Of a stretch of DNA of 64,000 bases, positions 24,213-24,724 are shown one piece after another (position 1 is the first letter of the stretch; each line of letters opens with the position of its first letter). This DNA comes from a virus. The stretch lies in IMG/VR virus record IMGVR_UViG_3300042469_000981; one strand, given 5' to 3'. The notes beneath the pieces are model-generated. The model saw only the letters and a list, made by a program, of their open reading frames with translations, was not told the DNA's origin and made no database searches. Made by a program: the position numbers and the translations under genes.

Positions 24213-24244
24213 GTAATATATTAATCTTCAGGTAAGTGGCCAAG
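24213..24244 (-). promoter_or_regulatory. early/middle-type promoter motif for folE
   Basis: CTTGGC-N18-TATATTAC. Confidence 0.6.
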
Positions 24245-24724
24245 TATATGTGGTAAGTTTCTTTTAGTTCCATCAACTGAATCTAAACCATATCCTACTA
24301 GCCAGTACTCATTTTCTAAATTAAAACCATACATTAGATCAGGATTGTTAACTGTGTGTCTTTTAAACAAAGTTATTGGAGTTATTGATTTTGGATTTGA
24401 TAAATTTAAATGAGTTATTAAAGCATTCATTGTATTACCTGAATCGTAGATATCATCTACAATATAAACATCTCTTCCTTCAATATTAGTTTCAATTGAT
24501 TTAGAAATTTGGATTGTGTTTTGTGTTATACCCTCATAAGATTTAGCACGTATAAAGTCTATATGACAATCACCTACACGCTTCACTAAATCTGTAAAGA
24601 ACATAAACGCCCCATTTAAAACACAAATAAAAACGGGAGGATAATCATGTTGTTTTTTTGTAATATTGTAGGCCAACTCACCTACTTTGTTTTTAATTTC
24701 TTGTTCTGTAAATAAAGTTATCAT
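24221..24724 (-). CDS. hpt: hypoxanthine-guanine phosphoribosyltransferase-like protein
   Basis: ICVLNGAFMFFTDL, FIRAKSY, VYIVDDIYDSGNT (PRPP loop), WLVGYGLD. Confidence 0.88.
   Translation of the reverse strand: MITLFTEQEIKNKVGELAYNITKKQHDYPPVFICVLNGAFMFFTDLVKRVGDCHIDFIRAKSYEGITQNTIQISKSIETNIEGRDVYIVDDIYDSGNTMNALITHLNLSNPKSITPITLFKRHTVNNPDLMYGFNLENEYWLVGYGLDSVDGTKRNLPHILGHLPED

Follow-up and report, generated by a model that had tools for sequence, protein, structure and literature searches.

Published schemes for the 7-deazaguanine modification of phage DNA (Hutinet 2019, Cui 2023) begin with GTP and end with the inserted base (PMC6884629, PMC10516641). The expelled guanine and the doubling of the guanine-nucleotide demand have no place in these schemes, and neither paper mentions a phosphoribosyltransferase (PMC6884629, PMC10516641). 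Among phages with a transglycosylase of the DpdA3 type, the Campylobacter phage CP220 carries 100% dADG in place of G, and 100% replacement is also reported for immuto and phiST; an in vitro demonstration that DpdA3 exchanges bases in DNA is lacking, and attempts in E. coli failed (PMC10516641). For the Queuovirinae CAjan and 9g, partial replacement of 0.1-30% that depends on DpdA has been reported (PMC10516641). The closest precedent for a phosphoribosyltransferase (PRTase) acting on a 7-deazaguanine is TubE of tubercidin biosynthesis, which is a proven CDG-specific enzyme (PMC6112128).

We analyzed a stretch of 64,000 nucleotides (the window) from IMG/VR record IMGVR_UViG_3300042469_000981, whose source is an uncultured T4-like phage. 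The features considered here, with the names assigned to them from the evidence in parentheses, are the following.

23528..24202, minus strand: folE, GTP cyclohydrolase I, the proposed user of recycled guanine nucleotide (sequence family matches)
24221..24724, minus strand: hpt, predicted HPRT-family 6-oxopurine phosphoribosyltransferase, 167 aa (PF00156, TIGR01203, PDB matches, AF2 model)
24721..24960, minus strand: thioredoxin-like ORF, 79 aa (stop codon overlapping the start of hpt)
24972..25373, minus strand: 4HBT hotdog thioesterase-like ORF, a conserved part of the module (60% identity with immuto26A_50)
25373..26164, minus strand: queE, 7-carboxy-7-deazaguanine synthase-like radical SAM enzyme (family matches)
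26167..26631, minus strand: queD, 6-carboxytetrahydropterin synthase-like, PTPS family (family matches)
26624..26869, minus strand: second thioredoxin-like ORF (CxxC motif seen in the translation)
27268..28155, minus strand: queC, 7-cyano-7-deazaguanine synthase family, 295 aa (family matches)
28963..29739, minus strand: homologue of DpdA3-type DNA guanine transglycosylases, the proposed source of free guanine, 258 aa (similarity to immuto and CP220 proteins)

The order along the minus strand is DpdA3-like, glycosylase-like, queC, thioredoxin-like, queD, queE, 4HBT, thioredoxin-like, hpt and folE. The hpt start codon and the stop codon of the thioredoxin-like ORF upstream of it overlap in ATGA (24721-24724), and the gap from the hpt stop to the folE start is 18 nt. 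An earlier reading of the sequence alone (the sequence-only reading) had placed an HPRT-like gene directly upstream of folE, in one run with queE, queD and queC, and this arrangement is confirmed, the product matching Pfam PF00156 (Pribosyltran) with an E-value of 5e-24. The only strong terminator-like hairpins on the minus strand, at 31786-31763 and 20434-20415, both lie outside the que/hpt/folE run; a weaker terminator-like site inside queD (26300-26283) is probably spurious.

The phage belongs to the DpdA3-type systems in that it encodes a homologue of the DpdA3 subfamily together with its own FolE, QueD, QueE and QueC. The homologue shares 34-39% identity, across 88-98% of its length, with the 'DNA guanine transglycosylase' of immuto and with CP220 gp056, and matches phrog_19058 with an E-value of 1.6e-43, while FolE, QueD and QueE are 61-67% identical to their immuto counterparts. 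Megablast of the module against cultured phages gave no match. The Pfam TGT profile PF01702 missed DpdA even where a phage has one annotated, and we therefore dropped it as a detector.

The module sits among genes of replication and nucleotide metabolism, namely PolB, a dUTPase-family gene, NrdJ (2 kb from the module), a DnaB-like helicase, a FEN-type 5'-3' exonuclease, a RecA-family (UvsX-like) recombinase, gp32 and a clamp-loader-like AAA+ ATPase. Such surroundings would suit generic purine salvage, in which Hpt augments the nucleotides gained by breaking down host nucleic acids and its position in the module is incidental to the replication and nucleotide region. The canonical look of the enzyme, described below, is also consistent with this explanation, as is the fact that CP220, in whose genome a search for PF00156 genes found none, manages without a PRTase.

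The hpt product matches the NCBIfam HGPRTase model TIGR01203 (E-value 1.4e-35, 122.6 bits) below the 150-bit equivalog cut-off, which marks it as a divergent member to which the equivalog name is not automatically assignable. In a phmmer search of the PDB, solved HPRTs matched it over its full length (residues 5-160, best E-value 1.8e-27), and its AF2 model (pLDDT 88) reached Foldseek TM-scores of 0.85-0.90 against bacterial HPRTs. The PRPP loop of type I PRTases follows the pattern hydrophobic-x-DD-x-x-D-[ST]-G-x-T; here it reads V89-D90-D91-I92-Y93-D94-S95-G96-N97-T98, with D91, D94, G96 and T98 invariant in the phage clade. The catalytic Asp facing purine N7 is invariant in HPRTs (D137 in human, D107 in E. 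coli), and D94, which aligns with D107 of the Salmonella enzyme, is kept in 64/64 phage Hpt sequences. A T. cruzi HPRT entry, 1I0L, is mutated at this Asp and is titled 'analysis of an invariant aspartic acid in HPRTs'. Further motifs are the S62-Y63 loop, K121/R122, W141, D148 and R155, of which the Ser-Tyr loop, D148 (98%) and R155 are retained across the 64 sequences of the phage clade. In human HPRT, F186 stacks on the purine and D193 is the Asp of the GYG-x-D motif; at the stacking position (W141 in the window) phage Hpt has W in 52 and F in 12 of the 64. The exocyclic O6 is bound by a Lys (human K165, E. coli K135). In that column the window has R122, with K121 just before it, and the counts are K 29, R 33 and Q 2 for phage (n=64) versus K 73 and R 2 for cellular sequences (n=75 rows). 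The window protein retains a basic residue here, although its identity and register are uncertain in this part of the alignment. Compared with the sampled cellular Hpt, which are mostly from Bacteroidota, the hood that binds the base has LFK[KR]x for LLxKP, one-residue insertions, a change of Y to I, and shorter or inserted loops. Judged by its motifs, the window gene would encode a catalytically ordinary guanine/hypoxanthine PRTase, although the remodelled hood could give it an altered base preference.

We assessed the link between hpt and the deazaguanine pathway in 79 IMG/VR loci that carry relatives of the gene (41-92% identity). Genes of the que set or DpdA3 lie beside hpt in 77 of these, and DpdA3 accompanies it throughout; folE is directly downstream in 43 of the 74 informative loci and 0.7-4.7 kb downstream in 20 more. 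For the nearest cellular homologues (34-46% identity, dominated by Bacteroidota), que genes were found within 5 kb in 0 of 79 truly cellular loci. The association is not due to chance, and the co-occurrence check proposed with the sequence-only reading thus returns a gene tightly linked to que rather than distributed independently of it. Most of the viral loci come from a single phage clade and so are not independent of one another; the independent support amounts to about six lineages. Among 50,697 phage records, the Hpt-type matches were only bacterial-looking contigs (a Salmonella WGS contig and low-identity matches on short unannotated contigs), along with the Prs genes of jumbo phages. 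A quick IQ-TREE tree places the phage Hpt in a separate clade on a branch well supported by SH-aLRT, with two Bacteroidota MAG sequences (L175 and L179) nested inside it. We considered whether both might be mis-binned phage and rejected this for L179, as ordinary bacterial genes surround it. The phage lineage would have gained hpt long ago from Bacteroidota, after which the gene would have become fixed in the DpdA3-type operon.

A PRTase of a different family, Gpt-like, adjoins folE in 80/80 immuto-like IMG/VR loci, none of which has Hpt, and the two types are mutually exclusive in related modules. One locus (L078) has a module of the immuto type, with DpdN and QueF, yet carries an Hpt-type PRTase. 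This swap of families within one slot points to non-orthologous displacement by the other classic guanine-salvage enzyme. In VpKK5 and a Stenotrophomonas phage, both of Queuovirinae type, a Gpt-like domain is fused to FolE beside DpdA, and its motifs are intact (RGG, DDIxD[ST]GxT, K, WxVFPWE). The Gpt-like gene adjoins folE in the Brevundimonas phage MaInes and queE in the PA5oct-like jumbo phage MIJ3. Among the lineage representatives of the Gpt type that we checked, phiST is the exception: though a deazaguanine phage, it has its PRTase apart from the que genes. A dNMP-kinase-like gene and RNR are neighbors of the PRTase in phiST as well as in the Brevundimonas phage. Phage Gpt-like PRTases resemble the window Hpt in module position (folE-adjacent, FolE-fused or queE-adjacent) and in predicted 6-oxopurine PRTase chemistry, the catalytic Lys being kept and the catalytic Asp present in 64/64 phage Gpt-type sequences. 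They differ in family, in length (115-160 aa) and in their WxVFPWE C-terminus; in the PDB they match archaeal GpT-1/GpT-2 and E. coli XGPRT best, and they align with the window protein over the PRPP loop only.

These comparisons bear directly on generic salvage. An association in 77/79 Hpt and 80/80 Gpt-like viral loci, the kinds of matches to which Hpt was confined among the phage records, the fusion or proximity to folE or queE in every checked Gpt-type representative except phiST, and a slot that is conserved through a change of enzyme family all argue against it, and we regard it as unlikely.

We favor the explanation that hpt recycles guanine and thereby supplies GTP for FolE, and on the sequence evidence we consider it probable. 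It corresponds to what the sequence-only reading had offered as an alternative, that guanine released by the transglycosylase returns to GMP and so to the substrate of FolE. What it builds on is observed: the gene with its family membership and catalytic motifs, its place in the operon and the comparative link to que and folE. From these we infer guanine as the substrate, DpdA3 as its origin, a flux to FolE and a benefit to the phage. Specifically, DpdA3 would swap each G of the phage DNA for a 7-deazaguanine base and free one guanine per site; with complete replacement this would come to approximately 44,000 guanines for each copy of the genome (G+C is 44,285 in the 135,792-bp record). Hpt and PRPP would turn the freed guanine into GMP, and the host enzymes Gmk and Ndk, invoked because no phage guanylate kinase was found in the genome, would raise GMP to GTP. 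With this GTP as substrate, FolE would then begin the FolE-QueD-QueE-QueC route to the next deazaguanine base. Each site otherwise takes one dGTP and one GTP, so that with the loop modification would cost half as many guanine nucleotides; the loop would also clear a product that could inhibit or reverse the base exchange. Since GMP is two kinase steps from the substrate of FolE, adjacency or fusion to folE does not join consecutive steps of the pathway.

All of the evidence for guanine as a substrate applies equally if the selected role of Hpt is only to keep free guanine low so that the DpdA3 exchange goes to completion, the fate of GMP being irrelevant. A need to act against re-insertion would also fit the tie to DpdA3 phages with 100% replacement, such as immuto and phiST. 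The gene is linked by adjacency and fusion to folE rather than to dpdA, however, and as the sole function we judge scavenging to be very improbable. It is hard to separate from the recycling of guanine into GTP, with which it is compatible.

The sequence-only reading had given first place to a route at the nucleotide level, with a PRTase that accepts preQ0 or CDG. In full, such a pre-replicative route has the PRTase phosphoribosylate CDG, ADG or preQ0, as TubE does CDG; kinases, NrdJ and a polymerase then lead to the insertion of deaza-dGTP, and DpdA3 is at most a clean-up enzyme. A path through modified dGTP was once proposed for Campylobacter phages (PMC6884629), and the ADG nucleoside has been reported in CP220-infected cells (PMC10516641). 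DpdA3 has yet to be proven active, and to reach 100% replacement would ask much of an enzyme that works after replication. The remodelled hood, NrdJ at 2 kb and the neighbors of the PRTase in phiST and the Brevundimonas phage are consistent with this route as well. Nevertheless, DpdA3 co-occurs with the PRTase throughout, and CP220 reaches 100% replacement without one, which suggests that the PRTase assists replacement without being indispensable to it. Varied end products go with the same PRTase types (QueC-only modules, QueF with DpdN, DG in phiST, and Queuovirinae), and two unrelated families of guanine salvage alternate in one slot. Where Gpt is fused to FolE, in VpKK5-like phages of Queuovirinae type, DpdA adjoins the fusion; the replacement known in that subfamily, from CAjan and 9g and not from the fusion carriers themselves, is partial and DpdA-dependent.

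The partner genes of a nucleotide route were also sought. Profile searches of the phage's own genome (record ~83% complete) found no guanylate kinase (PF00625), MazG (PF03819) or PRA-PH (PF01503), and tblastn of the same record with the immuto MazG-like, DpdN, QueF and Gpt-like proteins and the CP220 HD-kinase found none of these. The MazG-like protein that had been invoked in the sequence-only reading was thus absent from both kinds of search, and the parallel it drew with PurZ/MazZ/DpoZ logic, transferred to guanine, is disfavored. In the relatives, the MazG-like gene alternates with a trimeric dUTPase-family gene in the slot between folE and polB, so that it looks like a dUTPase equivalent; we rejected a dGTP-excluding enzyme as its likeliest identity.

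Residues of the active site provide another check. As a proxy for TubE and ToyH, we surveyed 401 Actinomycetes genomes for QueD-linked PRTases; QueD was tallied in 91 of the 401, a figure that includes three unpublished genomes (G026, G306, G375) on which no claim rests. In four PRTases embedded in actinomycete deazapurine clusters, with substrates assigned from gene context, the loop reads DDIAGSG, DDIAGTG, DDICGSG or DDVAGTG, so that the N7 Asp is replaced by Gly, and N or R replaces the O6 Lys. Both Asp and Lys are kept in about 17 housekeeping homologues of the same class, in E. coli Gpt and in archaeal GpT-1/GpT-2. The window protein reads DDIYDSG and lacks this loss of the N7 Asp, which is invariant in both phage PRTase families. 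According to the legend of Figure S2 of the TubE paper, its authors aligned TubE with Sulfolobus GpT-2 (4Z1O), which places TubE in the GpT type and not the Hpt type (PMC6112128). The window protein matches 4Z1O with an E-value of only 2.5e-7, compared with 1e-27 for HPRTs, and so falls outside the small GpT-2/XGPRT-like family. Taken with the alternation of two families in one slot and the evidence on partner genes and on CP220, the invariant Asp makes the nucleotide route quite unlikely. A variant is that the remodelled hood (LFK[KR], Trp, inserted residues) adapts phage Hpt to a 7-deazaguanine such as ADG or preQ1, whose substituent can pair with the Asp that is retained, and so starts a pre-replicative route to deaza-dGTP. 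We hold this to be quite unlikely as well; if true, it would explain 100% replacement in DpdA3 phages.

A guanine-salvage arm that occurs in two unrelated families and in fusion with FolE, across roughly six phage lineages, suggests that the modification pathway is a cycle, and that the removal and re-use of guanine matter where G is replaced heavily or completely. The question bears on whether the modification of DpdA3 genomes precedes or follows their replication. It is also tractable, as it concerns one small soluble enzyme and there are cultured relatives in immuto and phiST. For genome mining, the Asp-to-Gly signature, seen in n=4 cluster-embedded PRTases, may be a practical marker that tells guanine PRTases from deazapurine PRTases.

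Among known systems, bacterial Hpt (1G9S, 5KNR and 1J7J from E. coli/Salmonella; 3H83, 3O7M and 6D9R from Bacillus anthracis) have the same fold as the window protein at 31-37% identity, and share its PRPP loop with catalytic Asp, flexible Ser-Tyr loop, GYG-L-D motif and Arg. The motifs 'VLNGAFMF' and 'RN' are common to the window protein and Bacteroidota Hpt specifically. Unlike the bacterial enzymes, the window hpt is phage-encoded and lies in an operon with folE and que genes, which the nearest sampled cellular hpt does not, and its product has the LFK[KR] hood for LLxKP, Trp for the stacking Phe and a score below the equivalog cut-off. TubE of Streptomyces tubercidicus and ToyH of the toyocamycin pathway are, like the window hpt, purine-type PRTases beside homologues of FolE, QueD and QueE. 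TubE shows that a PRTase can take a 7-deazaguanine, but its pathway works without a DNA transglycosylase, whereas the window has a DpdA3 homologue. In Z-genome (2-aminoadenine) phages with PurZ, MazZ, DatZ and DpoZ, as in the DpdA3-type system, one DNA base is fully replaced by means of a phage module of purine metabolism. A dGTP-removing enzyme or MazG-like gene was not found in the present genome (record ~83% complete), and its PRTase appears geared to normal purines. In the Z-genome phages the new dNTP is made, and its canonical counterpart destroyed, ahead of replication, whereas the window encodes a DpdA3-type transglycosylase homologue.

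Three minus-strand genes of the window are listed first:

24221-24724, minus strand: hpt, a phosphoribosyltransferase (PRTase) ORF of 167 aa
28963-29739, minus strand: DpdA3-like, a 258-aa ORF homologous to the DpdA3 subfamily
20456-20953, minus strand: gene of the trimeric dUTPase/dCTP-deaminase family (PRK02253 score 90 bits, under its cut-off)

The minus-strand order is DpdA3-like, a Pyr_excise/MSMEG_6728-family ORF, queC, a thioredoxin-like gene, queD, queE, a 4HBT thioesterase-like ORF, a second thioredoxin-like gene, hpt and folE. The hpt start codon overlaps the stop of the thioredoxin-like ORF upstream (ATGA), and 18 nt separate the hpt stop from the folE start, which confirms the sequence-only reading that hpt lies directly 5' of folE in the same run as queE, queD and queC. 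This strand has strong terminator-like hairpins only at 31786-31763 and 20434-20415, both beyond the ends of the run; a weaker site inside queD (26300-26283) is probably spurious. The source is a 135,792-bp IMG/VR virus record (GC 32.6%; ~83% complete by CheckV) of a T4-like phage with PolB, NrdJ, gp32, a RecA-family (UvsX-like) recombinase, a DnaB-like helicase, a clamp-loader-like AAA+ ATPase and GroEL/ES.

Pyr_excise/MSMEG_6728 is a T4 endonuclease V-like DNA glycosylase family. Its member here (28478-28963, minus strand; NF038085 at 115.9 bits, above cut-off) has one boundary base in common with the DpdA3 gene, and some of the related contigs (L002, L004, L017, L029-L031, L050) also have it beside DpdA3, at 88-94% identity; a second DNA glycosylase next to a base-exchange enzyme may have a role in modification chemistry or repair. 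The 4HBT hotdog gene (24972-25373, minus strand; 6398-6826 in compared locus L001) is conserved within the deazaguanine module: it occurs in most Hpt-clade loci and has 60% identity to its immuto counterpart. We know of no step in the known deazaguanine pathway that needs a thioesterase. Both small thioredoxin-like genes (24721-24960, translationally coupled to hpt, and 26624-26869, both minus strand) recur in related contigs; they may work with NrdJ, QueE or some other protein as redox partner. Just 3' of folE lie an HNH/endonuclease VII-like homing-endonuclease gene (22865-23482, minus strand) and then small ORFs (21126-22806), several with a repeated N-terminus, 'MTNNKQQT'.

The 24221-24724 ORF is a real phosphoribosyltransferase gene. 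Its protein matches Pfam PF00156 (E 5e-24) and NCBIfam TIGR01203 for HGPRTase (E 1.4e-35; 122.6 bits, below the 150-bit equivalog cut-off), and solved HPRTs align with it over the full length (best E 1.8e-27). An AlphaFold2 model computed from 13 clade members has pLDDT 88 and pTM 0.84, its sole low-confidence stretch being the flexible catalytic loop (residues 64-67); the PDB matches listed for it are HPRT/HGPRT chains only, at TM 0.85-0.90 and 31-37% identity.

We compared the viral and cellular relatives of hpt. IMG/VR holds at least 157 relatives, and the best 79 loci (41-92% identity), most of the viral loci compared being from one clade, all sit in modules of one type; in 77 of these 79 at least one of folE, queE, queD, queC and DpdA3 is in the fetched flank. 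Among 74 informative loci, folE is directly downstream in 43, 0.7-4.7 kb downstream in 20, and upstream on the same strand in 4. In contrast, of the 80 homologues nearest to hpt among species-representative genomes (mostly Bacteroidota, 34-46% identity), 79 lack every one of these genes within 5 kb, and the sole exception is a phage-like contig with PolB, DpdA3 and que genes (L166) binned into an actinobacterial Microbacteriaceae MAG. Chance does not account for the association of hpt with the pathway. Among 50,697 cultured-phage records, Hpt-type matches were confined to bacterial-looking contigs and the Prs genes of jumbo phages. A quick ML tree places phage Hpt in one clade (SH-aLRT 98 on the branch to cellular Hpt), with two Bacteroidota MAG sequences, L175 and L179, nested inside; the neighbours of the latter are ordinary bacterial genes (Asn synthase, EamA, GT4, PIG-L, NUDIX).

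A second enzyme family occupies the same position in other phages and supports the association independently. Immuto has FolE, QueD, QueE and the 4HBT gene in common with the window at 60-67% identity, and its slot 5' of folE carries a 131-aa Gpt/XGPRT-like PRTase (NF006613) instead of Hpt. The best PDB matches of this protein are archaeal GpT-1 and GpT-2, followed by E. coli XGPRT, and it aligns with the window's protein at the PRPP loop only. The Gpt-like gene was found in 80 IMG/VR loci, always in the same module and adjoining folE on either side, and none of the 80 has Hpt. One locus, L078, has an Hpt-type enzyme in a module that is otherwise of immuto type, with DpdN, QueF and a Tmk-like gene; therefore Hpt and Gpt, two classic guanine-salvage enzymes of unrelated families, alternate in one slot. 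The Gpt-like gene directly follows folE in Brevundimonas phage MaInes; in MIJ3, a PA5oct-like jumbo phage, queE comes directly after it; in phiST it adjoins a dNMP-kinase-like gene and RNR. In two phages it is the N-terminal domain of a 297-300-aa 'GTP cyclohydrolase', fused to FolE:

L081:5754-6647: Gpt-FolE fusion, gp47 of Stenotrophomonas phage vB_SM_ytsc_ply2008005c, annotated 'GTP cyclohydrolase I'
L082:5998-6900: Gpt-FolE fusion, orf32 of Vibrio phage VpKK5, annotated 'GTP cyclohydrolase I'

This ~115-aa domain, undetected by Pfam at default threshold, retains RGG, DDIIDSGxT, Lys and WVVFPWE, and DpdA lies immediately downstream of both fusions.

We consider it rather probable that Hpt recycles guanine to GTP for FolE. 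DpdA3 would set free one guanine per exchanged site, and FolE would spend one further GTP per site; since the record has 44,285 G:C pairs, complete replacement would release ~44,000 guanines per genome copy. Hpt with PRPP would convert freed guanine to GMP, and host kinases would take GMP to GTP, the FolE substrate. The pathway would be closed into a cycle, halving its guanine cost and removing a product able to inhibit or reverse the exchange. This is the alternative offered by the sequence-only reading. The family and motifs of the enzyme, its place in the operon and its linkage across genomes are shown; its substrate, the guanine source, any flux to FolE and the resulting benefit are what we infer.

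In its main hypothesis, that reading had the PRTase act on preQ0 or CDG at the start of a nucleotide-level route to modified DNA. In favour of such a route, one through modified dGTP was formerly proposed for Campylobacter phages (Hutinet 2019, PMC6884629), and DpdA3 is putative in activity: it could not be got to function in E. coli (PMC10516641, Cui, Hutinet et al. 2023). The same study found all G replaced in CP220, phiST and immuto, and proposed post-replicative insertion for DpdA3 phages. The string 'phosphoribosyl' occurs in neither paper, and a full-text literature search returned no paper tying such a PRTase to the deazaguanine pathway. Were a PRTase step on deazaguanine obligatory, CP220 would be hard to explain, having DpdA3 and 100% dADG yet no PF00156 gene. 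Differing end products also go with the same PRTase types (QueC-only in the window, DG in phiST, QueF with DpdN in L078 and immuto, and those of Queuovirinae modules), and these types occur with DpdA of either class.

A Tmk-like kinase adjoining DpdA3 in CP220, immuto and L078 would suit a nucleotide-level route; against it, searches of the ~83%-complete record for a guanylate kinase, for MazG and for PRA-PH came back empty, and the MazG-like protein of the sequence-only reading was thus not recovered. DpdA3 of CP220 has a thymidylate-kinase-like gene on one side and one for an HD-domain/P-loop fusion protein on the other (gp055-gp057, L085:7868-10361); a homologue of the Tmk-like gene follows DpdA3/DpdN in immuto and L078, and here is distant (genome 117648-118310, outside the window). 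In relatives, a MazG-like gene after folE alternates with the dUTPase-family gene, which suggests a dUTPase-equivalent role for it; compared loci with the MazG-like gene are without the other. Across loci L002-L165, the slot between folE and polB holds either a dUTPase-family gene or an all-alpha MazG/PRA-PH-like NTP pyrophosphohydrolase (immuto26A_63 type).

The base-binding hood may point to an altered base preference. Phage Hpt differs there from sampled cellular Hpt (mostly Bacteroidota) at positions near-fixed in the latter: LLxKP becomes LFK[KR]x (Lys column K 29, R 33, Q 2 in 64 phage proteins), the stacking Phe is Trp in 52 of 64, Tyr becomes Ile, and one-residue insertions precede the Trp and follow the Asp of GYGLD.

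A PRTase specific for CDG does exist, TubE of the tubercidin pathway (PMC6112128), and is a real precedent for such a route. As a proxy for TubE and ToyH we sampled 401 Actinomycetes genomes, 91 of them with QueD (a tally that takes in three unpublished genomes, G026, G306 and G375, which support none of the claims made here), and recovered four PRTases in deazapurine clusters (genomes G256, G287, G224 and G053, respectively):

L288:10468-11016: PRTase in QueD-x-PRT-GT4-PIG-L-WbqC-rSAM
L284:14354-15094: PRTase in QueC-QueE...GT2-PRT-GT4
L282 (minus-strand ORF)/L319: PRTase near FolE and QueD
L300: PRTase adjoining FolE

These clusters contain QueD, QueC, QueE or FolE, GT4/GT2 glycosyltransferases and a PIG-L deacetylase. 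The best PDB match of their PRTases is Sulfolobus GpT-2 (4Z1O), the structure to which the TubE authors aligned TubE. All four have Gly at the PRPP-loop position where 6-oxopurine PRTases carry the catalytic, N7-facing Asp (DDIAGSG, DDIAGTG, DDICGSG, DDVAGTG), and the three aligned also lack the O6-binding Lys. Asp and Lys alike are retained by ~17 same-class housekeeping homologues, E. coli Gpt, archaeal GpT-1, GpT-2 and 1VDM. Asp-to-Gly with Lys loss is a candidate marker by which PRTases specific for deazapurines could be recognised in sequence. N7 is absent from a 7-deazapurine, whose C7 substituent would occupy the position of the catalytic Asp. That Asp is present in 64 of 64 unique Gpt-type and 64 of 64 Hpt-type phage enzymes; together with the Hpt/Gpt alternation and the lack of a PRTase in CP220, its invariance disfavours a nucleotide-level start from preQ0 or CDG. 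Because the Asp is invariant, and judging from four context-defined proteins and the established HPRT mechanism, the phage enzymes, unlike the actinomycete cluster PRTases, look like true guanine/hypoxanthine/xanthine PRTases.
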